DNA of 40,869 nt, from assembly GCA_003990765.1 (NCBI GenBank), contig RBNJ01000116.1:1-40869 (forward strand), in the 5' to 3' direction. Source of the DNA: Jimgerdemannia flammicorona (Eukaryota). The position numbers and the translations under genes were made by a program. The stretch's first letter is position 1; each line of letters opens with the position of its first letter. Positions 847 to 30,899 of this stretch are shown piece after piece. The notes below the pieces were generated by a model that did no database searches, had not been told where the DNA came from, and was given only the letters and a program-made list of their open reading frames with translations.

Positions 847-2072
847 TGTAACATGCCTGGCTCAATGGAGGCAAATTACAAGGTTGGGGGTTGATGTAGT
901 TTGGCTTGAGCCCCCGGTTACTTTGTTAAAAGTAACAAAATGTTCTTGGTATTTAGTGATATAATAATTAAAGCTGGATATCTGCAAGCGGTTTCCTTAT
1001 TTGGATGGTTCTCTGGGTGTAGCGGCGATTTGTGTATGACGGGTGATTTGGTGTAGCATGACAGGTTCCTTATGCGGTGCGATCTGGCAATTTAGCGGTT
1101 TTCCTTCTCTTGGATGACGGCAATCTCCAAAAGTATGCAATTTCTGTGTGACAATCTCTTTGTGTAGTGCGACGATCTCCAAAAGTATGTGATTTCTGGG
1201 TAATGGTGCGATTTGGCGGATAACTTAATTTGGGTGCGGATTCTCTTAAATTGGCGGACTTCTTGAATGTCGCGGAATCTTCTATACCGGGCTCACTGGG
1301 AATAGAGGATGGCGCGGATTCTTCCTGAATCAGCAGCTTACTGGGAATAATACTGGCGGCGGATAACTCAATAACTCAGGCTCTCTGGGAACAAACTGAT
1401 AACTCAGATGGCGCAGATTCTTGGCAAGTTACATCAAAGACTGGCTTCATTTGCATGGGGTTGCATCATAGACTGGCTCCACTGTGAAGTTACATCAGAT
1501 AGACTGGCTTGTGGCAAGGTTCCTTAAAGGCTCCCTGGGAATGCAGGTAACTTCTTCAGGCTTATCTGGCAAGTGAACCAAGGCTTTGTATCAGAAAGTA
1601 GACTGGAGTGGAAAAGGAATACTTTGCTCACAATCTCCTAGCAGTGGCTGTAGAGTTCCTCTCAAAGTGTAGTAGACAGACTTGTCTTTTGCTTTGGATT
1701 CAATTTCGGACTGAGGTTTATTCACTCTTGTCTCTGGGGTATTTTATACAGTTGTGGTTGCTATCTGGTTGCTATGTGGCTAACTATAGATTTGCTATCT
1801 ATAGCAAGTGTGCTGGTTCAGCACAGGTGTGCAAGTCTAGCATAGGTGTGCAACTCTAGCATAGGTATGCAACTCTAGCAAGGTGTGTAACTCTAGCACA
1901 GGTGTACAAGTCCTGCACAGATGTATCTTATAGTAGTCTGGCTATTTATACAGTTTTCTATAGCAATGGTTGCCGTGTCTGATTACTATGCTATGTATTT
2001 CATGTCATCTGGCTAATTGTTCATATCATCTGGCTAAGTTATAATTCAGGTGGTACATTTTGATTTGTCACA
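847..2072 (-). repeat. 3' LTR (1226 bp)
   Basis: Termini TGTAACA...TGTCACA; direct repeat of 9641-10806. Confidence 0.95.
1823..1920. repeat. ~20-bp tandem array in the LTR, (CAGGTGTGCAACTCTAGCA)n x~5; equivalent array at ~10553-10650
   Basis: Units directly visible in both LTRs. Confidence 0.9.
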
Positions 2073-2090
2073 TCAGCCCCTACTAAAGGA
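2073..2090 (-). promoter_or_regulatory. Polypurine tract (plus-strand priming site)
   Basis: Minus strand AGTAGGGGCTGA immediately 5' of the 3' LTR. Confidence 0.7.
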
Positions 2091-2619
2091 TGGTCTATCC
2101 TCAGATTGTCCTTTAGTCATCATCTCAGTGTGGGTAAGCATCTTCTGCATCAATATCTGTTCCATCATCTTCATTATCTGTACCATAATTGCTCCATTCC
2201 AAGGGTTCTTCTTCTCCTTCTGGGAACAGGATTTCGACAGCATTGATGATGCTCAGGTATGTAGGTAGCCAGGTTCATTCTTCATATATCACACCAGGGA
2301 AATTGTGCTTGTAACAAGGCTGTAGGGTTATATTTATAAAGGGTGTAGAGCCTGTCTGCAGCAGTGATATCTCTTCTTGACAATCCCATGGTATTTCTGA
2401 TATATGTTTGTTCTGGGGCTGAGAGGTTCTGCAATTGTTCTCCAATTGTATAGTGGGCCTGAAGTTGATGGATCTGTAACAATTATCTGGTCAGGACAAG
2501 ATTCTCTTGATGAATCTGAATTCTCTAGAGAGTAGTCCCATTGATTTCTCAGAATTGGGTCAAAGGAACTGGCAGTAATTGAAATGAGCTAATGATAAGA
2601 GTCTGAAGGCAGTTATCAA

Positions 2620-3700
2620 CTCTCTGATTCATGATATGGAGAAAGGTATATCTTGAGGTGATTGATGTATACTGGTGTCTTCAGGGTTCATCCATCCATG
2701 CTTCTTAAATAGATGCTGGTTTCTCTGCTATTGTACACAAGATAAGGTTCTTCTCATTTAGGCTCCAATTTGGTGGCAAAGTTTGTTTCAATCATACTTC
2801 TCCAAACTAGTACTTGATCTCCAATCTTGATCTTCTGGTCCTTCTGTTTCTGGTCATAGTACTTCTTTTGTCTTTCTTGGGCTTTGGTAATTTGAACTTA
2901 GGTCTAATTATATAACTGTTCTGCCTTTTTGGAGAAATCTCTGAGGTTCTCATGATCAGCAGTTCTGGTCTTCTTGGCAAAAATCATTTCAAATGGCTTT
3001 TGTTTGGTAGAGGCAGAAGGGGTGTTCTGAATTTCCCATAGGATCTCAGATAAGCAAAGATCTCAGTTGGTAGGATTGACTCAGGCATGTTCTTTGTTGA
3101 TGGTCTAGTTCATTCTTTCTGTCATGCCATTGGTCTGAGGGTAGTATGATGTAGTTAATTTGAGGTGGATCTTGTGAATTTGAGCATAACTTGTGATTAT
3201 GGTATTGATGAATTCTGTACCTTGGTCAGAGATAAGTTCTTCTGAGAGTCTATATCTGAGTGTGAGTCTATAGAGAAGGCCTACAATGGTTAAGACATCT
3301 GCAATTTCTATTGGAAAAGCCTCAGGCCACTTGGTCAGATATTCCACAAATATAATAATATACTTATTTCTTCTTGATGTAACTGGTAGGGGTCCAATTA
3401 CATCTACTCCCCATCTCTGAAAGATGTTGTCTGGTGGTGCAATTGGTTACAGTAGTGTTTGGTAATTCTTCCTTCCTTGGTACTTCTGGCAGGTGTTGTA
3501 TTTCTTGAGTATGTTTCTGACTTGTATCCTGAGATTGAGCCAATGTTGATATGTTGTTTACAACTTTTCCTCTATGTTTGCTTGTCCTTGGTGGGCTTTC
3601 TGGTGTTCTTTTTGAATGAGTTCTTCTTGTACCTTGATAGTCTGAGGAGTTTTCTTTAGGGTGTAGTTCCTTAGAACACCCTTCTTCTGATTCATTGAGG
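2620..3700 (-). pseudogene. Gypsy integrase (rve core plus GPY/F module; no chromodomain seen)
   Basis: EYLTKWPEAFPI, ELISDQGTEF, TTSYYPQTNGMTERMN (3105-3347); K*EEPYLV (from KWEGPY) and TLKTPVYINHLKIY at ~2645-2760. Confidence 0.93.
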
Positions 3701-3819
3701 CTGGCAGGAAAGTACATCAATATTGTTGTGAGCTTTCCCTGCTTTGTAGATGATGGTGATTTTGTAATCCTGAAGAATAAGGATCCAATAGACCAGGATT
3801 CTAGTGGGTTTCTTATAGT

Positions 3820-4100
3820 TGAATAGTCATTTGAGGGCTGCATAGTCTGTGATTAGAGTGAATCTTTTTCTGATGAGATAATGCTTAAACAGAGTGACCA
3901 CCCATATGACTGCAAGGAATTTCAGTTTAGTGCTACCATAGTTCATCTGCTGCTGATTGGTGGCTTGACTTATATAAGCTATTACATAGTATTGTTGGTC
4001 AGGTCCTTCTTAGGCTAGAACTGCTCCTAGGCCATCTTTGGAAGCATCTGTATACAAGATGAATGACTTCTATAAATTGGGGCACACAAGGATTGGAGCT
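3820..4100 (-). pseudogene. Gypsy RNase H
   Basis: FILYTDASKDGLGAVLA; NYGSTKLKFLAVIWVV..FKHYL..RFTLITDY. Confidence 0.92.
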
Positions 4101-4149
4101 GAGGTCATGTAGTTCTTGAGTTCTTTGAAGGCTTTCTCTTATAATTATG

Positions 4150-5050
4150 TCCATTTATAAGGTACTCCTTTCTTGAGAAGGACTTGGATTAGGGTAGTGA
4201 TTTAGGCAAAGTCCTTGATAAATCTTCTGTAGTAGGATACCAGCATTAGGAATGATAGTGTTTCCTTTGGGGTCTTGAGTACTGGCCAGCTGTTGATCTT
4301 CTCAGTTTTCTTTGAGTCTACATGAGTTCCTTCTTTCGAAACTGTGAATCTAAGAAATTTAAGTTTCTGTTTCCCAAAATAGTATTTCTTAGTATTGAGT
4401 CTCAGGTAGTTCTTATGGGTGAGCTTGAAGAATTCCTCCAGATAGTGTAGGTGTTCTTCAAATTTGCTAAACAGATATTGGAATCATCTATATATACAAT
4501 TAGGCAGTAGTGGATCAAGAGGACATAGACTGAATTTATCATTCTCTAAAAGGTGGGGGGTATATTGCAAAGTCCAAAGGGTATTCAGAGGTATTCAAAC
4601 AGTTTTTCTAGGATAAAGAAGACTGTATTTTGAATGTCTTTTGGGTCTCAGGGGATCTTGTGGAATTCTGTGAAAAGGTCTATACTGCTGAAGTATCTGG
4701 TATCTTATAACTGATCCAAAAGGTCATTGATTCTTGACAAAGGATAGGTATCTTTTTCAGTAACTAAATCGAGTTTCCTGTAATCTACACAGAGTCTCCA
4801 TCCTCCTTTCTTTGGTATAATGAGTATAGGACTGGCCCAGGGGCTGGTAGAGGGTCAGATAACTCCATTGTCTAAGAGTTCTAGAATGTGCTCCTTTTTC
4901 AATGTTTTTAAGTGATGGGGTATTCTATAGGATTTCTGCTAGATGGGTGTTATATTTCCTGTATTTATGCTGTAGTGATATGATGGGTTATATGGTAGAT
5001 TGCCATAATTGGTAGTGAAGATATCTTGATATTTATTGAGGAGTTCTACT
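4150..5050 (-). pseudogene. Gypsy reverse transcriptase
   Basis: [45 protein letters not shown] at ~4484-4500. Confidence 0.95.
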
Positions 5051-5520
5051 AGTTATTGCCATTGTTGGGGTGTCAATTCTTCTCCAATGTTGGTGGAAGG
5101 CTTCTCTGTCTCCTGGATCACAGAGGGGTCTTTCCTTTCTTTTAGAACCTTTTGCCATTTCCCAAGAAGTTTAGTTCATAAACTTTTCTATAAGTTCAGT
5201 TGAGAAAAGGCACCAGATGTCCTATGATGGTTCCTTTTGACAAGATGATGGTTTCCCAACTTTGGTTGATTGCTTGGAAATGTGCTGGATTCTTCTTGTC
5301 AGAGAATATATATCCTTCTATGTCCAGGTGTGGGATATCTTCATTGGGTTCAAAGAAAATGTTTCTGGAGTCGGGAGGTGTAAAGATTTCGAAGGTAGTT
5401 TGTTCTCCAGGCTCCAGGATGAGATTCTTGTGCAGTTTAACTAGTTAGCAGTACACTTGCTGGAGAACATTCTTCTTGAGATAGTTGACTTGAAGGAGAT
5501 ATATGTACTTTCTTCTTATC

Positions 5521-5930
5521 TGAGCTTCCAAATTCTTTGGCTTGTCTTATTCCTTTGGTCAGTTCAGAGACTTCTTGTAGTTGTGGGGTTTTGACCTTCA
5601 TGAAGACTGCTTGGGCAATCTTCTGTCCTCTAATAATTCAGTGTTATTCTGTACTGCTGTTGTGTAAGATGACCTTGATTTCACCTGTATATCCTGGGTT
5701 AATGGTTCCTCCTTCTATGGTTATTCCTTGTCTAGCAAGTCCAGATCTTGAGGTCAGTTGGATGTAAGCTCCTTGGGGTAGCTGCATGGCTAGTCCAGTC
5801 TGATCATGAAAATTTTTCTAGACTTGATGAATTTATCCTCCAGAACATGAAGATCATATCTTATATCTTCTGAGTGAGCTTTGGTTAGAGGTTTGGCCTT
5901 GGGATACAGCAGGGCATATTGGGCAACATT
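5521..5930 (-). pseudogene. dut: dUTPase domain (trimeric type) within pol
   Basis: All five motifs are recognisable: EDIRYDL (AGYDL), TGLAMQLPQGAY..SRSGLA, GGTINPGYTGEIKVILHN, GQKIAQ, RQAKEFGSS (RGxxGFGS). One frameshift near 5800. Confidence 0.95.
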
Positions 5931-7219
5931 CTTGCTAAGTTTGGACTGTCCTTGGGCTGAGGCTCTACTAGCAGAGAGCCTCCAAGCTCTGAGGTTGAGG
6001 TGTGACCATCTGGCTCCAGTGGAGGGGTCTCAGAGATAGTTGATTCCTCTTCTTTCTGTAGGGTCTAGGGCTTCCATAAAGTTGGTGGCATCCTCTATCC
6101 ATCCTTGGCAGGTTACATGTCTGATGAGGGCTAGGATATCTTCTCCTAAATCATAAATCTTAAGGATCCTTCTTCCTGGCTTCTTGGTCTGGCTTTTTCA
6201 AATCTGGCCTCTGTTATCTACTCTTTTCAAGGTGTGGATTGCAATATCATGACTGAGATAAATCTTCTGATATCTGTAGTCTCAGCAGTCTGGGTGTCTT
6301 CTATAGTTGCAATATTCCATTGCTCAAAAATGATGTTCCCAGTTATTGATTTCTTGTTGTCTTGGGAATTGGTATCCATATTGGTCATAAGTTGGGAGAA
6401 GAGTAGACAAGGGGTATACTTCTGTTCAGGTGAAGAGACTTTATCCTCTGAATCAATTTTGCAACTTGGTGGTAACTTCTTGGAAGGTAGTTGACTGTGC
6501 AACTATATTCAGAGATTCTGGTCTCTGGGGTCTCTGTCTCTCCTATTGGTCTAGTAGATAGCACTGGTAGCAGTAGTCTTAGGAAGAGTGGAAGACTATT
6601 TGGTATGAACATCTTCTTAGCCAAAATGTCCTCTCTTGGTGAGTTTATTTCTTGGGAATAATGGGGATTGTGCTGGGTCTTTCTTCTATATTCTAAGGAT
6701 CATTGTCTTCAGGTGGTGTCCAGTGAGGGTCATCCCAGGGAATGAGTTCAGAGACCTCTTCTTCTTTAGGTACTTCTTGTTTAGGAACTTCTTGGTCAAG
6801 AGCTTCTTCTTCCACAGATGATTCTTGTCTCCAGATTGCTTATACTTCTGTGGCTTCAGTTATAGGTGTTTCTGGAATATGTCTGCATTTCTTCTTCTTC
6901 TTTCTGTACTCTGGGCAGGCTGTGCTAGGCAAATTCCTTGTTCCAATAATCTTGAAGGAGTGCTCAGGGCACTTGTATCTCTTGAGACAGATAGGGCATT
7001 CTTTGATTTCTCCTACAATGGCTCCAATAGTAATGGGTATGGTATTATTGGCCCATACATTGTCTTCTGGCCTGTCATCCACTGGGTTGATCCAGAGATT
7101 GAGTCTGGGATCATTTCCATCTTCAGATTCTTCTTTCTCTTCTGTAGTAGATTCTTCACTGCTGGTGTATTCTTTCCAAATAGTGATCTTCTTCTTCTTC
7201 TTTGATTGCTCATAGCTGG

Positions 7220-7580
7220 TCACCTTAACTCTATACTTCTTGTCTCAGTAGTTAAACTTGAGTATTTGTTGACTGATATCAACAACTGCATTCATTTCCT
7301 TCATCCAGTTGGTGCTAAGAATTATATCATAGGTGACAGCTTTAGTGACAATAGCTTTTGATATGGAGAACTGAATGTATCCCAGGGAGATAGTGATGTT
7401 TCATACTTCTCCAAGGGGTTGAGTTCGGGCTCCATCTGCTACTATGATGCTGAGGTTAGATAGTCTATCAATGGGCCATTGGAGGGTATCCAGGAACCAT
7501 TTGACAATGATACAGATAGCTACTCCTGTATCTATGAGGATTTTCACCTTTTGTCCTCCAATATCTCTATATAGGTAATT
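7220..7580 (-). pseudogene. Aspartic protease
   Basis: VKILIDTGVAICII; ADGARTQPLGE; YDIILSTNWM (DIILGxDW). Confidence 0.92.
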
Positions 7581-7949
7581 GCTGATATGTCTTTCTGCAG
7601 CTTAGATAGGAATGGGAGCTGGCTCTTGTTGTGGAATTGGAACTTGACTAGTGCTAGACCTAGTGGTTCTTAGCAATTTATTTCAGACTCCAGCTGGTAT
7701 CAGTTGCAGGAACCGCAGTAGAGGGACTTCTATTTTGGCCTCTTGAATCTTCTACCAGGCTTCATTATAGATGTCTCTAAGTATGGTCTTCAGGATGTAC
7801 TTCTTCTTGAGCTTTGAGACAGCAGGCTTCTGTTCTTTTTGTTCCATTTCTTTATCTTCTAGTGGCAGCTCATTTGTCTCAGGAATAAAAGGTGAGAGAG
7901 TTCAGGGAGATATTTCTACTTGCTCCTCTTCATGCTCTTCATCTTCTTC

Positions 7950-9253
7950 CTGAATAATTCTTCTGCTGATATTCCTGGATGGCCTTCCTATGGGTCTCTT
8001 CCTCTTCTCTACTAGATAGACTATTTTTCAGGTGATGACCTTGGTAGAGTACAAGTCCAGATCACTGTAGTCTTTACTATTGCTTGCTTCCTTGAAATCT
8101 TTAACAGGATGAGCTTCAGTCTTCTTGTACTGAGTGTCATTTCTTCATTTTGATGGTTCTGAGTCCCTTCAGTCACTCCTTTTATTATCACATTCAGTAG
8201 CATAGTGTCTAAATTGTCCACAGTGGAAGCATTGGACTTGGGCTCTGTCTTAGACAGGGTACCTTCTTTCTTCTTGCTGATAACTCCTGTTATCTCTAGA
8301 TAACCTTGGTTTCTTTATATCAGGTACCCTCTGTTATCTTGATAACTCTGATTTTTACATATGGTGAGTTTTTCAATCTATCTAACCAATTGGTCCAATT
8401 TGGAGCTGAGGTCTTGGATTTCACTCCTGTCCTTCTTTTCTTCTTTGGCTGGCCTTCTTTCTTCAGATCTTTCTTGTCCTTGAAGGAGTCCTTATAGGGC
8501 TTTGATCAGAATGTCTTCTTTATCTTCTTTCTTATCATGATCACTCCAGGTAGTTTCTTGTCTGATATCAAAGAATCCTTGGGCTATATCTACTTGCTCT
8601 TCAGACCTTCTAATACCTAGGGTGTGGACATACTGGGCAATGTTTGGGGGAATCTCATTCATGAAGATCATTGGACCTATGATGTCCTGGTTGATAGTAT
8701 TGAACCTGGTGGCATACATTCTCTTCTGGATTCTTGTGAAGAAGGCTCTGGATGATTCTCTAAGATTTGTCTTTATCTCTATGGTAGATTCTTGAGCCTT
8801 GTGGTAGGTTTCATTTCCTGTATATTTTTTGATGATCCAGTAAACCATGGCTATATATTCTAGCTCATAAGATGCCACTACTTATATCTGTCTCACCAGT
8901 TCTAAATGTGGGTTATTTGCTGTTCAGTGGAAAATTCCTCTGACTAGTTCTCTGAGCTGGGTCTTATAGATAGTGATTTTTCTTTTATCTGGGAGATTTC
9001 TCAGAGATGTAATTTCTTCAATTCCATCAAGGAATTCTCTGGGGTCTTCCTCCAGGTATCCTGCAAAGGTTGGCAATGAGGTGGCCATTTTGTCATCACT
9101 TTCTTCTAATTCTGGTTCTGGTCCGGATTCTGATTCTAATTTGCTTTCTGAACTATCACTGATAATGAGGGTGCTTGGGTATCTTGAGGATGATATTCTG
9201 GACCTTAGATGAAGTGAAATGAGCCTAGGTATTCTTATAAGAGCTATTTCCAA
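7950..9253 (-). pseudogene. Gypsy gag with CCHC zinc knuckle
   Basis: LPTFAGYLEEDPREFL capsid-like start; knuckle CFHCGQFRHYATEC at ~8191-8232. Confidence 0.85.
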
Positions 9254-9620
9254 TTCTGCAAGGGCTAGTGGTAAAGGTTCAATGGGTGAAATTGGTGGGA
9301 CTGATATGGGGTGTCTGGCTGTAAGATCTCAGGCTTGTGTAATAAGATCTTTTAGTTCTTGTGTAAGTTCTTCAAAATCTCCAACAGGGCCACCTGTGTT
9401 GTCTGGTTGATCTGGTTGAGAATTTCAGACTGTACTGGTTTCTGATTGGGATTCTTCTGATGCTGGGTAATTGGTAAGTCTTGAGGTGATTACTTCTCTT
9501 CCTGTCCAAATGCTGGTGATAACTAGTTCTTCTGTAGTGGTAGAGATTGGTGTTGTATCAAATGTATCCAGTTTGACTGTGGGTTCTTGTGAGCTAAAAA
9601 GTCATATCAATTTTGAAAAA

Positions 9621-9638
9621 TTTCTAGTTGAGCCCCCA
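9621..9638 (-). promoter_or_regulatory. Primer binding site, tRNA-Pro-like
   Basis: Minus strand TGGGGGCTCAACTAGAAA, 2 nt from the 5' LTR. It resembles the tRNA-Pro PBS TGGGGGCTCGTCCGGGAT, differing mostly by transitions. Confidence 0.65.
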
Positions 9639-9640
9639 AA

Positions 9641-10806
9641 TGTAACATGTCTGGCTCAATGGAGGCAAATTACAAGGTTGGGGGTTGATGTAGTTTGGCT
9701 TGAGCCCCCAGTTACTTTGTTAAAAGCAATAAAATGTAATTGGTGTTTAGTGATATAATAATTTAAGCTGGATATCTGCAAGTGGTTTTCTTATTTGGAT
9801 GGTTCTCTGGGTGTAGCAGCGATTTGTATATGACAGGCGATTTGGTGTAGCACGACAGGTTCCTTATGTGGTGCGATCTGGCAATTTAGCGGTTTTCCTT
9901 CTTGGATGACGGCGATCTCCAAAAGTATGCGATTTCTGAGTGATGGTGCGATTTGGCAGATAACTCGATTTGGGTGCGGATTCTCTTAAATTGGCGGACT
10001 TCTTGAATGTTACCGATTCTTCTATACCGGGCTCACTGGGAATAGAGGATGGCATGGATTCTTCCTGAATTGGCGGCTTACTGGGAATAATACTGGCAGC
10101 AGATAACTCAATTACTTGGGCTCTCTGGGAACAAACTAATAACTCGGATGGCGCAGATTCTTGGCAAGTTATGTCAAAGACTGGCTTCATTTGCACAGGG
10201 TTGCATCATAGACTGGCTTCACTGCGAAGTTGTGTCAGATAGACTGGCTTGTGGCAAGGTTCCTTAAAGGCTCCCTGGGAATGCAGGTAACTTCTTCAGG
10301 CTTATCTGGCAAGTGAACCAAGGCTTTGTATGACTGGAGTGGAAAAGGAATGTTTTGCTCACAATCTCCTAGCAGTGGCTGTAGAGTTCCTCTCAAAGTG
10401 TGGTAAGCAGACTTGTCTTTTGCTTTGGATTCAATTTCAGACTGAGGTTTATTCACTCTTGTCTCTGGGGTATTTTATACAGTTGTGGTTGCTATCTGGT
10501 TGCTATGTGGCTAACTATAGATTTGCTATCTATGGTAAGTATGCTGGTTTGGTACAGGTGTATAAGTCTAGCATAGGTGTACAACTCTAGTACAGGTGTG
10601 CAACTCTAGCACAGGTGTGCAACTCTAGCACAGGTGTGCAAGTCCTGCATAGATGTATCTTATCTGGTAGTCTGGCTATTTATATGGTTTTCTACAGCAA
10701 TGATTACTGTGTCTGATTACTATACTATGTATTTTATATCATCTGGCTAATTGTTCATATCATCTGGCTAAGTTATAATTTGGGTAGTATGTTTTGATTT
10801 ATCATA
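9641..10806 (-). repeat. 5' LTR (1166 bp)
   Basis: TGTAACA...TATCATA (mutated TGTCACA). Differs from the other LTR by transitions and by indels of 52, 9, 2, 2 and 1 nt. Confidence 0.95.
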
Positions 10807-10840
10807 CTATACATATCTACTTAATATAAGTATATAGTAT

Positions 10841-13096
10841 AGAGTGCTAAGAGAGATTATATTCATCCTTTTGAATATATAAATGAAACTTGTCATCAAT
10901 GCTATGATGGCAAACAAAGTCTGGAAGACACTCCTTTCTCTGCTATCTTACTGGTCACAAGGTTTGATAGACAATCTTCCAAGTTCACTTTCTCTAACTA
11001 ATAACCTCTCTACCTCAGGTTAGTTTGCTGTACCTGTTGCAGGATAGTGGGAGAGAGGCAATGGTGATGAGTTGTCCCTTTATCAGTATCAGATTGGTGT
11101 CTTCTCTACTTTTTTATAATTTCTGGTATCTTTGGCTGTATCTGGAATATACTTATTTTAGTGCAGTGTCTTCTTCCTTTTGTCATTACTAACAAGATGT
11201 CATTTTAGTATATTATGGGTTACATAGAGAGCCAGCCAACCTTGGGCATCAAGTGCTCAGTATAGGTTACCTGTAGGTCCTCAGTGCTTGTAGTGGAGCT
11301 CTCTGGCTTTGGTGAGCTTCTCAGTGAGTATAGTTCTGGCATAACTGACTGCTTTTCAGGTGATATTGGGATGAGAGAGAAGATGACTATCACAGATAGA
11401 AGAAAGAGTGATAATGATAGATCAGTAGAGTGTCAGACTGGGGGCAGTTGTCAGAACATTGGGTAGATACTGCTTCAGTGGGGCCTTTTGATTAGTATAG
11501 AGTAGTTAGGTGGTAGGTGTTACTCTTTTGGCAATTTGTGGAATTGGGTTCTGGTCATTGGGGGGGATTGAGGGACCCAAGGCTATCTATTTCAGATATC
11601 TTGGCTACACTCAACTAGAACTAAGAGCTGATGTAACAATATGATTGAGGTCTACAGGCTTGAGTAGTAGGGTATTGGGGGTCTCCTCCCATCTTACATA
11701 TAAGTTCTCTACTCATCTCACTTAGGAGAACCAGGCCCTATCTACTGTTCTGTACCTTGAGGAGGGTTTTTTCTTTATCTGTGACTTCTACTTAGAGTGG
11801 CAGAGACTATTCTATTCAGCTTGAGCATGGTCTTATATATATATTGGGATTTTGGATATAAACTTTTGGTCATTAGCATATGGCTGAGTTCTCTCTGGTA
11901 GTAGGGAGAGCATGGTATGTAGAATGAGATGCAGACTGCTATAGATCCTGCTGTATCTGGTATGGTTGAGCTGCTGAACAATAGCTAGCCTAAGTTTAAT
12001 GGGAGAGTAATGCTCAATAAGTGGTGGGGGAGGGGTTTGGCCTATATAGTCTAGGTTTTCTTTCAATAAAAATCTCTGAGTCCATTAAACAAAAACAAAA
12101 AACAAAAAACAAAAAACAAAAAACAAAGCCTAGAAGATCTTATACAATTACCACTAGCTGGTATCTATGTCAAACAGATTCTATCTAAAAGTACAACTGT
12201 TTAATATCTGAATGAAGTCCAAGGAGAGTATCCAGAACTATATCAATAGTATTGATGATCTAGTGAATTAAGTGAATTCCCTTTCTATGCCAGCAGACCT
12301 CATCAAGGATGAAGATAAGGTTTTAGTCCTTATGTATAGTCTTCCCAAGGCATATAATATAGTTGTTATTGTTATGAGAGAATTCAGCAAACTATTAGAC
12401 TATAAGTATATCATTATGAGTCTTTTAAATAAAGAATTGAGGCTGGGTGATAATGATAATGAAGATGATGAGAAAGTATTCTAGAGTATATAGATAAGAC
12501 AAAGGTAAGCTGAACAAAGGGTGAGAGCAAAACCAGTAGTATGATAGTTAGTATAATGGTCAATGAGTTAAATTTGATAGTAAATGCTTTTACTATAATA
12601 AGTATAGATACTACAAGCAAGACTACAACTATAAGAAGAAAGAAAAAGATAATCAATAGCAATAAAGATAATATAGATAGGTCAATATCATAGATATCAA
12701 TCATAATGAAGATAGCAGAGATAGCAAAGGTCTGTTCTTTACAGAAATAACAACCTATCCACATGCAGAGAGAGTTATAGAAGCAAATTTGGAAAATATT
12801 TTTACATTGATGAAAAATGCACCAACTATCAGTTCTACTAATTTCAGTACTAGTACCAATATAAGCTATATATTGAGTACTTATAAAAAAGTCTGACTTA
12901 TAGATTCCAGTATAATATATATATTCTATTTTTATATCTAGACTCTATATCATATACTATCCAGAAGATTGCACACTCTTCTGACTACTTTATATTTCAA
13001 TCAGATAGTCAGACACTATATAATAAGAAGCACAATATCAAATATTAACTGAAAGACTATACTTTATGTTTTTTTTATATTCTATATTTTTAATCT
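10841..13096 (+). pseudogene. Ty1/Copia gag-protease relic, split by a LINE fragment
   Basis: ANKVWK|ILY reads across the LINE TSD. UBN2-type gag DEDKVLVLMYSLPKAY..SLLNKELR; degenerate knuckle KCFYYNKYRYYKQDY at ~12582-12625; *LIDSS (WLxDSG) at ~12895. Confidence 0.75.
10929..12120 (+). mobile_element. 5'-truncated LINE (family A 3' end) with (A5-6C)n tail
   Basis: Inverted homologue of 13800-14968; AATAAA at 12065; 17-bp TSD AAACAAAG(T/C)CT(G/A)GAAGA at 10912-10928 and 12121-12137. Confidence 0.92.
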
Positions 13097-13771: not shown

Positions 13772-13802
<31 letters not shown>

Positions 13803-14832
13803 GGACTCATGTCTCATGGATTTTTATTAGAAGGGAACCTAGACTATATAGGCCAAAACCCTCCCCTACCACCCACCAAGTACTGCCACCCCATTAACCT
13901 AGGCTAGCTATTGTCCAGCAGCTCGACCATACCAGGCGCAGCAGGGCCAAAAAGGCCTGCACCTCATTCTGCGCACCATGCTCTCCCTACCACCAGGGGA
14001 AACCCAATCATATGCCAATGACTGAAAGCACATGCCTGAGAACCCAACATATGTACAAGGCCACACTTGAGCCGAATAGAATAGCCTCTGCTACCCCAAA
14101 GAGAATGACAGGCAAAGAAAAAACTCTCATCAAAGCACAATATAGTGGGTAGGGCCTGGTTCTCCCAGTTGAGATGAGTAAAGGACTTACACATGAGGCA
14201 GGAGGAAACCCCCAATACCCCACTACTCAAGCCTGTGGGCCTTGATCATATTGCCATATCAGCTCCCAGTTCCAGTTGAGTGCAGCCAAGATATCTGAAA
14301 TGGGTAGCCTCAGGCCTCCTGACCCCCTCTGACGACTGGGGCCCAACTCTGCTGACTGCCAAAAGAAGCTGATAGTGACACCTACCACCTAACTGTGCCA
14401 CACCAATCAAAAGGCCCCACCGAAGCAGTACCTGCCCCAGCCCTGATGACTGCCCCCAGCCTGGCACCCTACTGGTTTACCATAATCACCCTTCCTCCTA
14501 TCTGTGATGGCCATCTCCCCTCCCATCCTGACAATACCCGAAAAGCAGTCATCTATGCTAGAACCGTGCTCACTGGGAAGCTCGCCAAAGCCAGAGAGCC
14601 CCACTATAGGTACCGAGGACCTGCAGGTAACCTACACTGAGCACTTGATGCCCAAGGTTGGCCAACTCCCTACATAGCCCGAGATACACCAAGACAACAC
14701 CTTGTTGGTGATGGCAAAAGGAAGAAGGCACCACACCAAAATGGGTACACCCCAGATGTAGCCAAAGGCACCAGAATCCACAAAAAAGTGGAGGAAGCAC
14801 CAATCTAACACCGATAAAGGAGTAACTCATCA

Positions 14833-17800
14833 CTATTGCCCTCCTCCCACCATGCCTCTGTAGGTACAGCAAACCAACCCGAGGTAGAGGGGGTAATAAT
14901 AGGGGAAAGGGAACTCAGAAGATTGCCTACCAAACCTTATGACTGGTAAGATAGTGGAGAAAGGAGCAAGCTCCCCAAGCTCTGTCACCTCCTATCCTCA
15001 AAAACAAATAACCAGTGACCAGCTAGCCTAACCCAAATAGCCAATGCCCAGCCTAAGGTAATCTACTCCTTTTCTACCCCTCCTACCAATTGATCCCTCA
15101 AGTCCTCCCACCTCTCCCATACTTCACCTCTCCTATGCCTCACTCTCAAGTAGTCCCCGATGGCCTGCCAAAAGTCTCCCAATACCTTACACTCTCCTAG
15201 CCAATGTTCTGGCATCTGTACAAAGTCTCCTTCCTGCCCTACATTATGGCACTCCTTACAGTTGAAGCAACCCCCAATGATAAGATGCTCTGAGCAGAAG
15301 TTGAGCATTACATTCCTCCTCAGTATATACCACCAGACCACCCAGTACTTCAGCAGCATCTATTTTTGCACTATGGTACTCTAGGTCCAAACACTATACC
15401 AGTCCCACTCTTCTCCAATTCCAACTCCTTGCCAACTGCTAGGCCACAGATCCTGGCCTGGTCCCCTTTGGCATTCTATTCCATCACCAATATCAAACTC
15501 AAGTAAAGGTATGCCACCCAGCAGTATGCCATCCCATCTCCACATTGCTAGGTCCCAAGCCTCCTCCCCCTCATTCCCCTGCCAGCGAATACCAATATGG
15601 TGTGCTCTCTCTGCTATTCTCTACCAGAAACCTTTATATCACAATTATACAGTGTTCTGAAGTCCAATCAATGAGAGAAGATCACCAGTTGAGCCTCTTG
15701 GTGATGATCACCTCTCCCAGACCTTCTGCAGCAGGAGAACCCAATCCCCTCCTCACAACTCCACTGCCCTCCTAAGCCACCATACTCTCAAGCAGTGTAG
15801 TCATTTGGGAAAGTCCACCAGCCCAAGACCACCTCTTGCCACCAGTAGGGACAAGGTCTCTCAACCAATCTGACTCCATCTACCAGCCCAAATCCATCCC
15901 TTGGCCACCTTCACCAATCTCTTCACTATCTAGATCAGGAAGTCTAGATAATAAGCCAAATACCACAGCTTTGGCAGCCAATATACATTCAAAATCGAGA
16001 CCTGTCCTGCCAGAGAAAAGTGTCTTCCCCCCCAACCCTGCAGGTCCTCCTCCCAAATTCCAATTTACTGCTCCCACAAAAGACTGGGCAGAACTGACCC
16101 ATAGACTGATAAGTAGATGCCCAAGTACTGTACTGCCTCACTGGTGGGGACAATTGTTCCAATAACTTCTCCTCCCACTAGGCTGTTGCCTAGCACCATT
16201 GTTTCACACTTGTACCAATTCAGCTTTACTCCAGAGTTCTCCTCATACCACTCCACTGTCTTCTTGAGCTCCTCGATATCAGCAATCAATTCCAAGCCAA
16301 TCACCATATCATCCACAAAGGCCCCAACTTTCCACCCAATACCATAGATAGAGAGTCCCACTATCCTCTACCTAATTCTGTCCATTAGGGGTTCCAGGAA
16401 AAGAGCATACAAAATGGAGGACAGTGGGTCCCCCTGGGGCACCCTCCTACCCAGAGGGAATGCAATCTCTCTATACCTATTACACAAGAGTGCAGCCCTA
16501 CTCCCTTCCAGTAGGTTGACCATAGCTGACCAAAATTGGATCAGAACCCCCATTCTATCCAATACTTTCACCAGCCAGACTTATCACACCTAGTTATAAG
16601 CCTTCTCCTGGTCCAAGAAGACTAGATGCCCATCCAGTCCACAGGCTCTAGCCCCTTCAATAACTCCATGTACTCAGGCTGTACCATCTCTAATGAGCTG
16701 ACCACCCACAAATCCCCTCTGCTCAACACCTATAACTTGCTGGGCTACCTTCTGTAGCCTTGCAACTACCACCTTAGTCACCAACTTTCTGTCCATATCT
16801 AGCAACATTATTGGCTGCCAGTTCTTTCAATTCTCTTGCCTCCTTTTGTTCTTATAAAGCAGCATCACCAGCCCAAGATCCTACTCCCCCACCCATCTCC
16901 CTGTCTGCAAAATAGAGTCACATAATGCCATCAACTCTCTCATCACACCTGGGACTCCAACCATTTGTTTCCAGAAGTCCCAGGGTAGGCCATCCTCTCC
17001 AGGTGCTGTACCTGAGGCTATTGTGGCAAGAACCTGGTGGATCTCATCCTCCTTCACTGGCATCACCAGGTCACCTAGTCTCTCAACTTGTGGTGGGTGC
17101 CAATTCTCCAATATTTGATTAATGGCAGTAGCATCTGCCCCACCCTCCTCCTTGCTCCACAATCCACTCCATCACTCCTTCAGTAATCCAAGAATATCCT
17201 GTACACCATGCACTAGCACACCATCTAAGTCAAGTACTCCTTTCCACCATTGCTGTACCCTCCTTGCCCTAAGTGTCTTTGTGAGAAACTTGGAAGGCCT
17301 CTCTCCTTCCTCCAGCCCCTGCCAACAAAGCTGTGCTACCAAGCTTTGCACCCTTGCCTCTTCCTCTTCCTGCAGCACCTGTTGTAGTTCCCCAACCTCC
17401 ATCTTCACCCTCATTAACCTCCAATCTTCTTCTCCCTCCACCATTACCAGTCTCACCCACTCCTCCAGAAGTCTAGCCAATCTAGTAGAAGCCCAATGCA
17501 CTCTCTGCCTTCACTGCTTCCCTGCCTCCTTGCCGGCCTTGCTCTAGTATATTCTGGCCATCTCTTTCATCCTTATCTACCAAACCCCAATTGAGGCACC
17601 TTCCTGCCACCAGTTCTCCACCCTCAGCTGAATATCTTTAGCCCACTCCTCTCACTGGGACTCATCATCTAACAAGGAGGAATTTAGGCACCAATGTCCA
17701 GGCCCATCCCCACTTCCCCCAAAGCACCCCTGTCCCAAAAGGCCCCAGTGATCCAACCATGGACACCATTCCACCTCCAGTGACTTCCAAACATCTCGGC

Positions 17801-18428
17801 CCCAACAGTTGGATGTTAGAATCCAGTCTATCCTTGTCTCCAGGCCTCCAGCCCAATGCATATATACCTTCCTATCTCTCCAGTACTCTCTACCAGCATC
17901 TATCAGCACTCCTAGTCTTTTGACTTCCTCCCACATCACCAGCCCCCCACTCCTGCTCTCAGCACCCTGTCCTCCATCAGTTCTATCTATCTGTATATCC
18001 CAAACCATATTGAAATCACCCCCAAGCATATCCACCCCAGCCTCTACAAGGATTCCACTCTCCTGGAGACCCTTCACCCAATCTATATGCTCTCCCCATA
18101 TGGCAGAGCAGTAATAGGAGCTAACTGTAACTGGCTCCCAGCCTGCCCAAATCCACTCACCCCAGACCAGCCTCTCTCCCCAGCTCCTCATGTCTCTTAT
18201 CTCCCCTCTGCTTTTCCAAACCAGAATCCTGATCTTGCCATTCCAAATCACCATACCACCCCATTCCTTTGTCCATTCCATCCTATTAGAGTCATCCTCA
18301 TACCTAACATCCTGCAAGAGGAAGAGATCAGCCTCCAATCCCTTCAGCTAAATAAAAATGTTCTTATGTCTAACAGCACCCTGTAGCCCATTCACATTCA
18401 ATGAAAAAATATTGGTTGTACTGTTCAT
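14833..18428 (-). pseudogene. LINE-A ORF2: APE endonuclease, RT and C-terminal Cys/His region
   Basis: MNSTTNIFSLNVNGL, FLLQDV, GGDFN, TRIDW, LDHW; LEEGERPSKF; APGEDGLP; FLDQEKAY, VPQGDPLS, AFVDDM, YLGI; CKEC...EHWLGEC. Confidence 0.93.
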
Positions 18429-18457
18429 AATGAATATGATTTGTTATCAGTCAATCT

Positions 18458-20424
18458 CTACTGCTCTATGCTCATCTCCTTCTGTGCTATATCCAGATTA
18501 TGTTCTGCTATCACCTCCTCCTCTTCAGCCCTCTGAGCCTCCAATCCAGCCAACAGCTCAATCATCTCTCCATCTGCCTTCTCCTCAAACTCCTTCTGAT
18601 ACTCAATGCAGGCCTCCTGCCAAAGCTGCAATCTATGATACTTGTTCCAACAGTACTCAGCCCTCTCCCCAGCAACAACTGCCATCTCTGCCTCCTGCTC
18701 CTTGTCTACCTCATACCCTTCCTCCTCCAGATACACCATAAGAATTTCCACCTTCAGTGCCATCATCACTCCATCCCTCTGCAATATCTGCACCCAGTGA
18801 TCATCATCCATCACTCTCAGGTCCACCTTTCCCAACTCTTCTGCTGCTAGGTTATTTATCATCCTGCACATCCAAAGTAGGTTTCCCACCTCCTTCCCTC
18901 CAGGGGTCACTGGCCTCTCTCTATCCAGCATTGTGGTACCAGCTCCAGCACTCACAGCCTCATCCCATATCTCTGGGACATCTACCAGTTTCTCCTCCCT
19001 GGCCACCACCACATGTCTCCTGGTCATCACCTCTGGAATGCCGAATTTCACCTGATGGGTCCCCAGCATTGTCACATCCTCCACAATCTTGTTTCTGGAA
19101 GCCAGGCCTCACCTGATAAGAGGAGAAGGAGTGGGGGAATTCTCCCAGACCTCATCCCAAACCTCCAAGATGCCATCAGTATATGGGTCAATAATCTTCA
19201 CCTCCTTCACCTTCCCTGCCTCCTCCCTGGTATTCCCACTCCTCTCACCAGCCCAGACACTTGCTTTGGCCTCTTCTATGCCCATCATCTTGCTCACATC
19301 CTCCTGTGGTCTGCCTCTCAGTTTAGCCAGCAGATCCTTCTGTTTCTTATGCTCCTGAGCTCTTTCCCACTGTACCTTGTCCACTTGAATCCTCTTTCCA
19401 TCCACCACCTCCAGGTGCATCAACTCTACAAAAGCCTTCCAAGCCTTTGCTTGTCACTCTATAGCACTATTCAATTCTTCCAGCACTTCCAATAAATCCT
19501 CTTCCTTCTCTTCACTTCCTTTCACCCTCATCACCTTGCACAAGATCACTCCCCAGACCATCACTGAAGGCCAGTCCCTTGCCTTCCCAGTAGCTTCTTT
19601 CTCAGCCAGCTGAATCCTCACATCCACATCCCCAGTCCTGAGTGAGGTCCCTTCCCAGACCCTGAATCCAATATCCACTACCTCTCCATACTCTGCTATG
19701 ACATCTTCAACTCTCTTTCTTGTCTCTATTGCTGTCACTGTGAGCACTCCTTTCACCAGCAGTTGGACTACCCTCGGATCCCATTTCAGACATCTCACCA
19801 TTGAAATACACACCTCTCCAACCACCAACCCAACCTTCAGTACCTCCTCCAGTGGCTCAGCCTTCTCAAAACCCATCTCCACACCCTCCAGTCCCTTCAA
19901 AAACTTTACTGATGCAGCTTCTGCCACCTGCTTAGTGATAAGCCCTAGCACCATTTTCACTATCACTGCTAAGCCCCAGAAGCACAGTATAACTGCAAAT
20001 ACTGAGATTGATTTTTTGAGTAATGGGACCACCACTAGGTCTGTTATGCCATCTATCAAATTTTCTTGTCTTTCAAGCCTCAGCTGCTCAGCCTTACCAA
20101 CAGCCATCATATCTGGATTTTTTTTCCAGATTGGCAGTCCTGTTACCATCAGCAGTCACACTCCCCCCAGCTGTAACTCCCCCAGCTCCACTGCTCCCCC
20201 TTCCAAGGGCTACTCTCTCATGCACCGCTCCCTTCTCAGTCTCCTTACCCCTCCTCAGCCAGCCCTCCAGCCCTGATATCTGCTGTCTTTCCTTCACTAT
20301 CTCTACAAAGCTCACCCTCTCAGACCCTTATCCTCTACTAGTACTACCACTCCTTCCTTATCCTCCTGCCAGCAGCTCCCTCATGCCCCCCCCCAGGCCT
20401 GGGCCCCTCCCTACCTGCTGCCAT
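18458..20424 (-). pseudogene. LINE-A ORF1 (RRM-like core, acidic/coiled C-terminal half)
   Basis: RCLKWDP..LLVKGV..YGEVVDIGFRVWEGT.LRTGD; homologous to LINE-B ORF1; lies upstream of ORF2. Confidence 0.8.
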
Positions 20425-20536
20425 TTGAAAGCACTTGGGCCACCCTGCCCAGTACATATCTCAGATTGCCTATCGGTCACTATGTTATTAGTCTCTTTAC
20501 TCTAAAAACGATGTTGTAAGTGCCTTCCAAAGGTTG

Positions 20537-23169: not shown

Positions 23170-25303
23170 ATGAGCAAACAAAACAGCAGGCCTTAATTTC
23201 ATATATTGGTCCAGTCTACTCATTTTTCACCCTATAATAATCATCAAAAGAGAGAGTATTCGAGGTGGAAATGCACTCTCTGCTGACAATGTTAGATTCT
23301 TTCTCATATGGACAGCATACAAGCTGCTCATCGAGAGCCAAAGGAGTGATGGCAGTAGTGATGGCAATGGCAATGGTGATGGTGGGGATAAGGGAGAATT
23401 CTGGCAACAACTCATGGTGGCCCTTCAGACCTTGAAATTCACAGACCTCACAGCTATATATATAGTAGCCTTTTTGGAGCAGCCGATAGTAGATGTAGGT
23501 TGCTCACTTGGCTACCACTTGTTTACTTGTATTTATTTAAACTTCTTCAGTACGACTCAATTTACCTCATACTTTTCTTAGGATTCACAGCTCTATGGTA
23601 AGATCTGCTGACTTTATTCGCAATATCTGGTCAAGATGAAGAAAGGCTGGCAGACGTTGCAGGGCATGCCTTTGGTGACTGAGCTATTAAGTCAATGCAT
23701 TATATGGTAGAGGTCTCAAAAGGAATAGAAGCAAGCCTTCATGAGCAATCTTATACAACACATGCAACTCATTAGTATGTAACTCATTGGCATGCAGCTT
23801 ACTCACTTACTCACTCATGCTCTTTTTCTGAAATACCCATCTTCATATTTTATTTAATTTCATTTTTATGTGGTCTCCTCCTAAAAAAACATCTACATCC
23901 ACATGCAACCTGTCTGCATGCAACCCACCTACACATGACCTGTCCACATACAATCTGCCTGCATACAATCTGCCCATGTACAACCTGCCCACAACCCACC
24001 TGCACACAACCCACCTGCACACAACCTGTCTGCATGCAACCCATCCACATACTTATTTTGGTCCCTCAGATCAGGGCTCAGTTCTATTGGAAAGGAGAGT
24101 TCAAAGTTACCCAAGTTCAACCACATCCAGTGTCTGATCAAATAGAGAAATTTGAGGGCAAGATGTTCAGCATAAGCAGTACCAGCATCATCATCAAGGC
24201 TTGGGGGTCTACATTCGAATCAGAGCCAATTGTACTCGACCAAGGGGTCTATTGGCCAGCAGGAGTAACCAATGATGAAGAGAACCATATCTTTATTAAT
24301 GAATATAGAGAGGTGGTTGCAATGGTGGTAAGAAACCTCTATAGTGATGAGCTTCACTGCCACATTAATGAGATTTGCAAGGATTGCATCAAATACTGGG
24401 TAGCAGGAAAGAGGGGGTGAAAAAAGCAAGGAGGGGGGGTTTGGATGAGAATTGGGTATACTGCAATACTGGCGAAGGGTGGGTTCTGGAGTTCTGAAAT
24501 CCCTCGCACTTGTCTCCCTTTTTTTTTTAACTCCTCCCCAGATAAATCACACTCTTTGCCAATATACTCTTTTTGATACAATTCTAGGAATATACAAGAT
24601 TCTGTACCTCTATCAGAACTTTAGAAGTGCCATTGAAGAGCAAACTGTATATGAGCATAATATAGCCTATGTGGCGATTGTGGCTATGATCTGGAGTTTT
24701 TTGAGCAGATTGGTAGAGCATATGGCAGGCCAGCTTGGTGGTGATCTCAGTGTGACTGTATGTATATTCTTGGCACAATTTAGCATGCCATATGAGGTGA
24801 GGAGCTCAACTTTTTTGGGGTGCTGTAGTTTGGGGAGTTTCTGCCCCCCTACATGTAAAAAGAACTGACCAGTTGCCATCTATTTCAGCAGGTTTCTAAG
24901 CTGGGGCTCCCAGGGCTAGACCAAGGGCAGATATCCACCAGTACAGCCTGGTAGTATGAGGTTCTGGGCCAAGAGTTCACTCAACTGTATGCTTATGTCA
25001 TATCAGGATACATCAGATACAACCTTTCTCTGCCCATACATACAGACTACAATGTCACCCCAGTAATGTTTTATATTTCAGAAAGAAAGGGCCCAATCTG
25101 AGAGGATAGCAGCAGAGTCTGGTATGACCTCATCTATGGTTTTAGGGTTCCGTTTGTAGCTAATATGGCCATCCTATTCCAACCACATGACCACTACAGT
25201 ACTGTCACCTTCGAGAAGAGCTCAGACACAACAGTTGTTGTATTTACAATAGATAATAGGCTCATCAAGGCCTGGGATCAGTGGGTGGAGCAGTTTTTGT
25301 GAG
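23170..25303 (+). pseudogene. Multi-exon gene of unknown function inside the hAT interval (approximate model)
   Basis: Repeated GT..AG introns with pyrimidine tracts and CTRAY branch sites (e.g. 23495-23550, 24797-24888, 25121-25199). Stop-free phase-0 exons 24070-~24399 and 24542-24796. Confidence 0.55.
23900..24050. repeat. 15-bp minisatellite (TGCACACAACCCACC-like) x~10, intronic
   Basis: Directly visible; explains the CTQPT/CVQVG periodic ORFs. Confidence 0.85.
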
Positions 25304-25420
25304 GGTTAGACAATCTTTTGTGAGGGTTAGGCAATCTTTTGTAAGGGTTAGGCAATCTTTCATGAGGGTTAGGCAGCCATTTTGTGTGGGTTAGGCAGTC
25401 TTATGTGGGGGGGATTGGGC
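25294..25420. repeat. 21-bp tandem repeat TTTTGTGAGGGTTAGGCAATC x~5
   Basis: Directly visible. Confidence 0.9.
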
Positions 25421-25632
25421 TGGGCACCTCTTATGTAGTACTAGCTTAGCCATTATGTAGGGCCCTGCTGGCCCCTTGGCCCTGCTCTGTAGTGCTACTG
25501 GTGCAGTACTGCAGTGCAGGGCTGGGGTGCCCGTGGGACCCAAACTGGTGACTTCAACTACTGAAAATGCCCTCCAACTACCAGAAGCACCCTCTGACTG
25601 CCAGAAGCACCCTCTACCCCAAACTCCTTAGT

Positions 25633-26096
25633 GGCTTGGGGCTGCCCCTATGCCACTAGCAGAGGGCTGCAAATTTTGCACACTCTCTCTGCCTGCCTCA
25701 CCCATCCTGAACACTTACAGCTTGGGGCTACTCCTTGCTGCCAGTGGAGGGCCACAAATTTTGTATGCTCCCTCTGCTGACCCTGTGCCTGCCAACCCAC
25801 CAACTGACCCTACCCACTGACCCAGATGCTGTCCTGGGTGCTGACAGCTTGGGGTTGCCCCTTGCTGCTAGCAGAGGGTTGCAAATTTTGCATGCTTCCT
25901 CCACCTACCCCCCTGACCTGGACACTTACAGCTTGGGGCTGCTTCTTGCTACTAGTGGAGGGCCACAAATTTTGTATGCTCCCTCTACTGACCCATCGAC
26001 CTGCCTACCATCCTGCCCACTGACCTAGGTACTGGCAGCTTGGAGCTGCCCCTTGCTGCTGGCTGAGGGCCACAAATATTGCACGCTCCCTCTGCC
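25633..26096. repeat. Five ~55-bp hairpin-forming repeats in a higher-order (A-B-A-B-) array
   Basis: AGCTTGGGGCTGCCCCTTGCTGCYAG..GAGGGCYRCAAATTTTGYAYGCTCCCTC at ~25633, 25719, 25846, 25930 and 26037. Confidence 0.88.
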
Positions 26097-26233
26097 ACTG
26101 CTGCCAACCCCACCCCACTTAGGTCGCAAACTCCAGGCTGAGTCCTCAGGTTTTTTTTTCCTTTTTTATTATTTTTGAAAAGGAGTTAAATATTCCACAA
26201 GGCCAACCAACTTATCTGCAGACCCATCAAATT

Positions 26234-27121
26234 TTAGCAGCCCAAGCCCCACCAAGACTTCAGACACATATATACCCAGATTATCTCAGTATTTAGCATA
26301 TACCTCTTTGGAGCAATGAGGTCTACCTTACCTGAGAACACCTGCTTGATGGGAGTGCTGGAGATAGGAATCACTAGATAGTTCTGAGCTATACCACACA
26401 GGCTGGGAAAGTCCATTTGATGCAGCTGCACACCCTGGTGGATAGAGCAGTAGTTAGATTGGTGGGTTAAATTGGCCCAACACCCACCTGACAACCCACC
26501 TTTCACCAGTTGAGCATCTCCATGCCCTCCAGCAGAACCATGCAGTTACTGGTGAGGTAAATGCTAAGTTCATCTATTGATGGCAGCTCTTCCACTGATG
26601 GCTCTCTCTTCCTCTTTCTACTAAAGTAAATGTGGGACAAGAGGGATCCCTCAGCATATTTGTCTAGACTTCAGCCAAAACCTTGTGGTGGTGCATAGTT
26701 TTTCCAGTATACTTTGATTATGGCCTACTTGGTTCTCTCAATGAAGTACTGCTCCCAGCCCTGATCTTTATGGTATTGTAGCTTTAAGCATAGGTCCAGC
26801 ACTGTTCAAAGAAAAGAAGAGTGAGTTTTTGTGAAGTTTTCTCTATTTTGGAAGGGGCAATGGCCACATGCCGACATCGACATACCTGTACTGATTGAGT
26901 ATACAGTGGTATCTGTTTGGGAGTAGTATTTTCTGAGCTTGCTTAGAGCAACCTCCATGATATCTCTCTGATCTTAGCTTAACTGTAAATCACCACAATC
27001 CTTCAGCCTGTCCTCGAGCTTGTCCTCTAGCTGGTCAATCAGAAGGTTGTATACTGATATCACAGAGCTTATTGTCGGGGTTGTTTGTTTGACTATATCC
27101 TTTATATAATCATCGAAACAC
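26234..27121 (-). pseudogene. hAT transposase C-terminal exons including the dimerization domain
   Basis: PTISSVISVYNLL, ALSKLRKYY, intron GTATGT..AACAG, VLDLCLKLQY (LDPRxK), FPSLCGIAQNYLVIPISSTPIKQVFS..KR..L..MCLKSW. Confidence 0.9.

Positions 27122-29436: not shown

Positions 29437-29473
<37 letters not shown>

Positions 29474-30842: not shown

Positions 30843-30899
<57 letters not shown>

Follow-up and report, generated by a model that had tools for sequence, protein, structure and literature searches.

The 40,869-nucleotide stretch of DNA analyzed here (the window) encodes a trimeric-type dUTPase at positions 5521-5930 of the minus strand, as seen by six-frame translation and in a Pfam scan. 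Very probably, this segment represents the dUTPase domain in a dead Ty3/Gypsy retrotransposon copy, whose family would encode a trimeric-type dUTPase in pol, between the protease (PR) and the reverse transcriptase (RT).

For the Pfam scan, positions 1000-13000 of the minus strand were translated in three frames, with stops entered as X. The dUTPase profile PF00692 matched with an E value of 7.3e-16 and 58.6 bits against a curated cut-off of 22, and the alignment spans profile positions 35-128 of 129, corresponding to nucleotides 5521-5802. On the plus strand, 5401-6060 is rich in T and no frame is open; the coding sense is minus. Trimeric dUTPases are defined in the literature by five motifs, and all five are recognizable, in order, in the translation and alignment of the window copy: DIRYDL (motif 1, 5852-5867), SRSGL (motif 2, 5739-5751), GGTINPGYTGE (motif 3), KIAQAV (motif 4), and KEFGSS (motif 5, 5523-5541), all on the minus strand, the positions being those of the codons. 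The domain is a bona fide member of PF00692, and on the combined evidence of the Pfam match, the alignment, the codons, and phmmer we annotate 5521-5930 as a dUTPase domain pseudogene. A first-pass annotation of this DNA had described a “complete” dUTPase with all five motifs in the pol frame and had proposed the Pfam profile as a check. The profile match is clear and the motifs are present with the deviations then listed. Completeness holds for coverage of the domain but not for its integrity, since the core carries two in-frame stops and is a broken pseudogene, and motif 1 lies in one frame while motifs 2 to 5 lie in another.

The damage can be read codon by codon against the three flank-sharing relatives found, P0271, P0122, and P0134. 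The dUTPase core is read in a frame other than that of its flanks, the shift occurring near 5805-5830 and the return near 5500-5510, and codons 5646 and 5640 are its two in-frame stops. Changes affect three motif residues: Gly to Arg in motif 1, Asp to Asn in motif 3, and Gly to Glu in motif 5. The window has the codons AGA (R), AAC (N), and GAA (E) where the relatives have G, D, and G, so that a single G>A transition separates each deviant residue from that of the family, in agreement with the earlier proposal that G>A and C>T changes account for the motif deviations. The stop codons, TAA and TGA, stand at sites of W and R in the relatives; one corresponds to a single C>T change and the other to two G>A changes. 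The window copy is thus without the catalytic Asp of motif 3, which the relatives keep, and without an open reading frame. Along the homologue-defined frames of the whole element, the coding path contains 50 stops in 1,891 codons and several frame changes. This copy is a dead pseudogene, inactivated by frameshifts, stops, and transitions.

The relatives were found by a HMMER search in which 1.84 billion cluster representatives were queried with the core of 100 residues; 14,903 proteins matched at E≤1e-3, of which 717 reached E≤1e-10 and 2 reached E≤1e-30. P0122 (226 aa) is 73% identical to the window in the core and runs on into the window's downstream linker. P0271 (404 aa), the only match among 855 longer candidates when P0122 was used as the query, aligns to 6320-5106 and comprises the end of the upstream spacer, the linker, and between them a full dUTPase. 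P0134 (1,179 aa) includes a CCHC motif, a protease, a 412-residue spacer, the dUTPase, and the linker. Its collinearity with the window extends from 8309 to 5079, with identities of 24 to 48%, and the domain itself is 49% identical. Their PF00692 scores are 95.3 bits for P0271, 112.7 bits for P0134, and 62.6 bits for P0122. Motifs are canonical in all three, with P0122 covering motifs 2 to 5 only: P0271 has VGYDL, SRSGL, IDPGYTGE, KITQ, and KGFGSS, and the relatives together give VGYDL, SRS(G/S)L, ID(P/N)GY(T/R)GE, (K/R)I(A/T)Q, and KGFGS(S/T). Residues 880-1179 of P0134 gave only dUTPase clusters scoring below 0.9 in the Atlas.

Among 271 proteins compared, the spacer and the linker match only P0122, P0271, and P0134, and in these three proteins neither region has a Pfam family at E≤5. 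A structure model of P0271, built from a seven-row alignment, has a mean pLDDT of 41, with 56 to 85 in the core blocks and below 50 in the spacer and linker; the linker is modeled as beta strands at this low pLDDT. A word-index search with the window dUTPase region against proteins of 825 to 2,625 aa yielded 28 candidates, of which none scored.

The intact motifs of P0271, P0122, and P0134 make it plausible that the ancestral enzyme of the family was probably active, as the first-pass annotation had supposed. In active copies, the domain would be released from, or act within, the Gag-Pol polyprotein as a homotrimer and would hydrolyze dUTP to dUMP and pyrophosphate close to where reverse transcription takes place. 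Less uracil would thereby enter the cDNA, which would be shielded from uracil-excision damage, a protection that would be most relevant in non-dividing cells, where host dUTPase would be low. This uracil-limiting role is drawn by analogy from the retroviral dUTPases. Motif 2 of the family is S-R-S, compared to P-R-S in the vaccinia-type enzyme, and motif 3 is IDPGY, compared to IDEDY; because of these deviations, full catalytic competence of the family is treated here as an assumption.

The same lineage-specific deviations, together with the embedding of the domain between two conserved regions without assigned function, might be taken to indicate a dUTPase-fold protein kept for a structural, regulatory, or signaling role rather than for uracil control. 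We consider such a non-catalytic role improbable. P0271, P0134, and, for motifs 2 to 5, P0122 conserve the catalytic motifs, including the Asp of motif 3 and the Gly-rich motif 5, and they do so although P0134 is only 47 to 49% identical to the window's family; selection for catalysis would be expected to produce such conservation. An enzyme acting in uracil control remains our preferred reading of the family's domain, with its competence assumed as above.

The element that carries the domain is a whole LTR retrotransposon of 9,958 bp on the minus strand (847-10804), delimited by blastn of both ends and by reading the termini and flanks. A target-site duplication of 6 bp, which reads TACTAT on the plus strand, flanks it at 841-846 and 10805-10810. 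Its 5' LTR (9641-10804, minus) is 1,164 bp long, with TG…CA ends and 19-bp tandem repeats, and its 3' LTR (847-2070, minus) is 1,224 bp long; both were defined by blastn and LTR alignment. The 19-bp unit is found in both LTRs, with three overlapping register copies at 1779-1883 in the 3' LTR and five at 10529-10671 in the 5' LTR, and the difference in LTR length is due in part to this array. The two LTRs are 91 to 93% identical (1,077 matches, 84 mismatches, and 66 gap columns). A putative primer-binding site (9623-9640, minus) directly follows the 5' LTR and a putative polypurine tract (2071-2084, minus), G-rich rather than purely purine, directly precedes the 3' LTR, each assigned by position only. 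Rfam and tRNA scans of the window found nothing.

Between the LTRs, Pfam and tblastn give the order gag(CCHC)-PR-spacer-dUTPase-linker-RT-RNase H-integrase on the minus strand. The gag remnant (7900-9088, its 3' limit approximate) is collinear from 8309 with the gag of P0134; the first Met of its readable frame is at 9088 and its CCHC zinc knuckle is at 8190-8231. The aspartic protease (7260-7562), with its DTG motif at 7518-7538, is placed by Pfam and by tblastn with P0002, P0007, P0003, and P0134; its Pfam matches, Asp_protease_2 at 23.0 bits and RVP_2 at 19.8 bits, are both slightly below their cut-offs. The lineage-specific spacer (5931-7259), placed by tblastn and homologous in parts to P0134 and P0271, contains Cys-rich motifs at 6960-7001 and 6285-6320 on the minus strand. 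Neither motif has a Pfam match, and both may be zinc-binding; P0271 conserves the second, of which P0134 has a counterpart. On the other side of the dUTPase, the lineage-specific linker (5106-5510) is about 135 codons long, has four stops in this copy, and is conserved in P0122, P0271, and P0134. From the protease to the dUTPase there are thus about 450 codons without an assigned domain, and from the dUTPase to the RT homology about 135.

The RT itself (4453-5121), with YIDD at 4480-4497, is supported by Pfam RVT_1 (E of 3.7e-11) and by tblastn, and the RT connection and RNase H (3695-4477) by RT_RNaseH_2 (E of 2.3e-27), RT_RNaseH (E of 2e-26), and tblastn. The integrase (2646-3686), comprising an H2C2 zinc finger and the core, has nine stops; it was assigned by tblastn with P0001 residues 466-841 and by Pfam, where rve (22.2 bits) and Integrase_H2C2 (18 bits) both score below their cut-offs. 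All of these domains are on the minus strand. With the protease Pfam match at approximately 7299-7562 and the RT match at 4453-4818, the dUTPase lies between the two, as first annotated. Only about 575 nt separate the integrase homology from the 3' LTR, and there is therefore no space for an env gene. No chromodomain (PF00385) was detected at E≤0.01 in the minus frames of 1000-13000, where decay could mask a weak match, and none is present in P0001, the closest integrase-bearing relative.

Decay is not confined to the dUTPase or to this element: a CpG-targeted C>T/G>A process has acted over the whole window. CpG observed/expected ratios, measured on 847-10804, 14000-20500, 31000-36500, 28000-31000, and 37000-40000, are 0.03 in the internal region of the element, 0.06 in two LINE-like elements, and 0.00 to 0.06 in AT-rich stretches; across the window they range from 0.00 to 0.13, with 0.29 in 24000-28000. 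The GC-richer repeats have an excess of TpG/CpA. Of the 84 mismatches between the LTRs, 78 are transitions, nearly all in CG/TG/CA/TA pairings, which is the pattern expected if ancestral CpG was deaminated on both strands. The pattern would fit either methylation-driven or RIP-like CpG-targeted mutation.

The rest of the window consists of transposon remains, and no host genes were recognized by Pfam on its open stretches. The fungal origin given in the first-pass annotation is plausible, although the contents of the window lend it no support of their own. Outside the element, 110 open stretches of at least 70 aa gave only Copia gag, RT, and integrase, LINE RT, and hAT dimerization matches. 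Two decayed LINE-like non-LTR retrotransposons lie on the minus strand at approximately 14000-20500 and 31000-36500, with about 50% GC and a GC skew of -0.4 to -0.5 on the plus strand; their RT pieces are at 16068-16367 and 32307-32771, and an Exo_endo_phos-like open reading frame at 17655-18347, which the Atlas clusters with Exo_endo_phos at 0.95, is a LINE endonuclease. Copia-type fragments (gag, RVT_2, and integrase) are found at 12272-12481 on the plus strand and at 38840-39070, 40107-40400, and 40466-40867 on the minus strand, within very AT-rich stretches of 18 to 28% GC. Their presence there suggests that these AT-rich stretches consist of repeats that are older and have mutated more heavily. 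A hAT C-terminal dimerization domain at 26237-26545 on the minus strand (31.6 bits against a cut-off of 21.4) is the remnant of a DNA transposon. There is also an inverted repeat of about 1.2 kb with 77% identity (10931-12116 versus 13772-14966), which lies just outside the 5' LTR of the Gypsy element and encloses an AT-rich Copia-like fragment, and a local direct repeat of about 150 bp with 85% identity (25634-25783 versus 25847-25994).

The relatives of the element as a whole bear on whether the dUTPase belongs to the lineage or arrived in this copy by secondary insertion or host-gene capture. When the RT-connection/RNase H stretch was used as the query against proteins of 825 to 2,625 aa, 133 proteins matched at E≤1e-3 among 946 candidates. 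Among the matches listed, the best are Gypsy-type polyproteins with 42 to 47% identity, the closest one with a name is a protein of Rhizopus delemar (42%), and named animal and plant Gypsy-type proteins have 35 to 40% identity in RT/RNase H. None of the 120 listed of the 133 carries PF00692, and in seven close relatives that possess PR as well as RT, 192 to 342 residues and no dUTPase lie between the two Pfam matches, compared to about 830 residues in the window. These observations would suit an insertion confined to this copy. Against it, the domain in P0122, P0271, and P0134 is accompanied by the same spacer on its upstream side and the same linker on its downstream side, and the window domain has decayed like the rest of the element, which makes a private insertion, named in the first-pass annotation as a case that would overturn its interpretation, very unlikely. 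Because three natural relatives share both the domain and its unusual flanks, we take the dUTPase to be a heritable part of the lineage. One close RT relative, P0003 (888 aa, 42% identity), has a NUDIX hydrolase domain (49.1 bits) before its protease.

By its domain order and its similarity ranking, the element classifies as a Ty3/Gypsy-type (Metaviridae-like) LTR retrotransposon; the order PR-dUTPase-RT-RNase H-integrase, the LTRs, and the target-site duplication bear out the class first proposed. dUTPase is best known from betaretroviruses, non-primate lentiviruses, and ERV-L, and methylated animal genomes, too, are typically strongly depleted of CpG, so that an animal endogenous retrovirus of one of these kinds had to be weighed against a Gypsy element. 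There is hardly any likelihood of this, considering that the best RT/RNase H relatives among the matches listed are the Rhizopus protein and then Ty3-G, 17.6, and K02A2.6-like proteins, that the Pfam families matched are RT_RNaseH_2 and Integrase_H2C2, and that the distance from the integrase homology to the 3' LTR leaves no room for env. Moreover, PR-dUTPase-RT is an order that Rodriguez et al. (2017, PMC5408684) report for retrotransposons. As for a chance or wrong-frame artifact in a low-complexity decayed repeat, the broken reading frame and its stops weigh next to nothing against the Pfam E value, 717 library proteins at E≤1e-10, and an intact dUTPase-bearing protein 73% identical to the window, and we dismiss it. 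The dUTPase of a decayed Gypsy copy thus stands as the preferred reading.

To place the domain among other dUTPases, a tree of 151 rows was calculated from the best-scoring domain of each protein, the rows being without taxonomy; besides the window, it included 149 of the 150 best HMMER matches (P0142 was dropped) and P0271. The window, P0122, and P0271 form a clade with an SH-aLRT of 99. With 11 of 148 inner branches well supported, the tree does not resolve the origin of the domain. P0134 falls outside the window's family in free trees, at a position that is unsupported in the 151-row tree. An AU test was run on 48 hand-picked rows, comprising the family, P0134, tree neighbors, retroelement-linked rows, and a spread of others, with 103 rows dropped. 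When the family and P0134 were constrained together on these rows, lnL was 23.4 better than in the free quick search and p-AU was 0.885. A single acquisition in the common ancestor of the family and P0134 is therefore not rejected and would be compatible with the data; because the flanks are shared, one acquisition is the simplest reading.

Solved structures do not point to a source either. Of the solved dUTPase sequences, 72 distinct ones match P0271 at E≤1e-5, led by 2okd at 83 bits, and cellular, DNA-virus, and retroviral enzymes all fall within 57 to 83 bits, with no group standing out among the 72. The entry codes matched presumably belong to human, yeast, plant, DNA-virus, and retroviral enzymes. 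Separately, 24 of 150 scanned dUTPase hits, including P0121 and P0123 to P0131, have two or three tandem dUTPase domains per chain by our own profile; their per-domain identity is only 30 to 40%, and summed scores lift them to the top of the list.

Other retroelements have combined a dUTPase with pol in different ways. Six of the 68 scanned hits of at least 200 aa are retroelement-linked, including P0134. The domain lies between PR and RT in P0249, after the integrase in P0184, and before PR in P0245, and it is accompanied by a Pol beta-barrel domain in P0146 and by RVT_3 in P0161. In RT, P0249 and P0184 are 35 to 36% identical to the window, compared to 34 to 40% for relatives that have no dUTPase. 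We suggest tentatively, as a possibility on which we would not insist, that the window's family and P0134 form a separate, non-chromoviral Gypsy lineage that itself gained a PR-RT module of about 600 residues, composed of the Cys-rich spacer, the dUTPase, and the beta-rich linker. If so, the NUDIX domain of P0003 would suggest repeated capture of nucleotide-pool-sanitizing enzymes by the clade, and the unassigned flanks would act together with the dUTPase.

Capture of dUTPase recurs in retroviruses, in a few fungal Gypsy elements, and in bdelloid elements, and it bears on how retroelements cope with uracil in non-replicating cells. The present locus adds one more PR-dUTPase-RT lineage, with natural intact relatives. 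A limited full-text literature search found no account of this lineage or of its spacer and linker. The parts most deserving of further work are the two conserved unassigned flanks and the NUDIX-bearing relative P0003. The general picture is unchanged, given that the copy is a pseudogene and that both the arrangement and independent acquisitions are already in print (PMC2864245 and PMC5408684). In the former (Novikova et al. 2010), Gypsy families of Postia placenta are described with dUTPase in three different places, of which PosPlaTy3-5 shows the one between PR and RT, and independent acquisitions from different sources are suggested. PMC2864245 also cites dUTPase-bearing Metaviridae elements of Phanerochaete chrysosporium (Novikova & Blinov 2008) and the LTR retrotransposon Tmt1 of Tuber melanosporum with dUTPase (Riccioni et al. 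2008), so that the fungal precedents named in the first-pass annotation, Tmt1 among them, are borne out. The novelty it implied is smaller, since these sources give PR-dUTPase-RT for PosPlaTy3-5, for the Phanerochaete elements, and for the bdelloid elements Juno, Vesta, and TelKA (Rodriguez et al. 2017, PMC5408684). In Entomophthora muscae, PF00692 is enriched together with retroviral protease families, according to a preprint (10.1101/2023.09.13.557621); we regard this as a lead on the host, short of a match.

Compared with these known systems, the retroviral dUTPases are alike in being of the trimeric family and in lying within a pol/pro polyprotein, and they score 58 to 67 bits against P0271. 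Among them are 1duc/1dun and 1f7d/1dut, which we take to be the EIAV and FIV dUTPase structures. They are no closer to P0271 than the cellular and DNA-virus enzymes (57 to 83 bits), and the element in the window is Gypsy-like. Juno, Vesta, and TelKA are alike in having the dUTPase between PR and RT, as described in PMC5408684. Juno has an extra zinc knuckle with its dUTPase, and the window element has Cys-rich motifs in the spacer before the domain. In the same description, the hosts are animals and many such elements have an ORF3/env-like gene. Rotifer RT hits are about 36% identical to the window, compared to 42 to 47% for the best unnamed relatives and the Rhizopus protein, among the matches listed. 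Tmt1, as cited in PMC2864245, is a fungal LTR retrotransposon reported with a dUTPase. PosPlaTy3-5 and the Phanerochaete elements, compared by the description in that paper, are Gypsy elements with the dUTPase between PR and RT. They contain chromodomains, whereas none was detected in the window element at E≤0.01, and by description the window element has approximately 450 extra codons before its dUTPase and approximately 135 after it.
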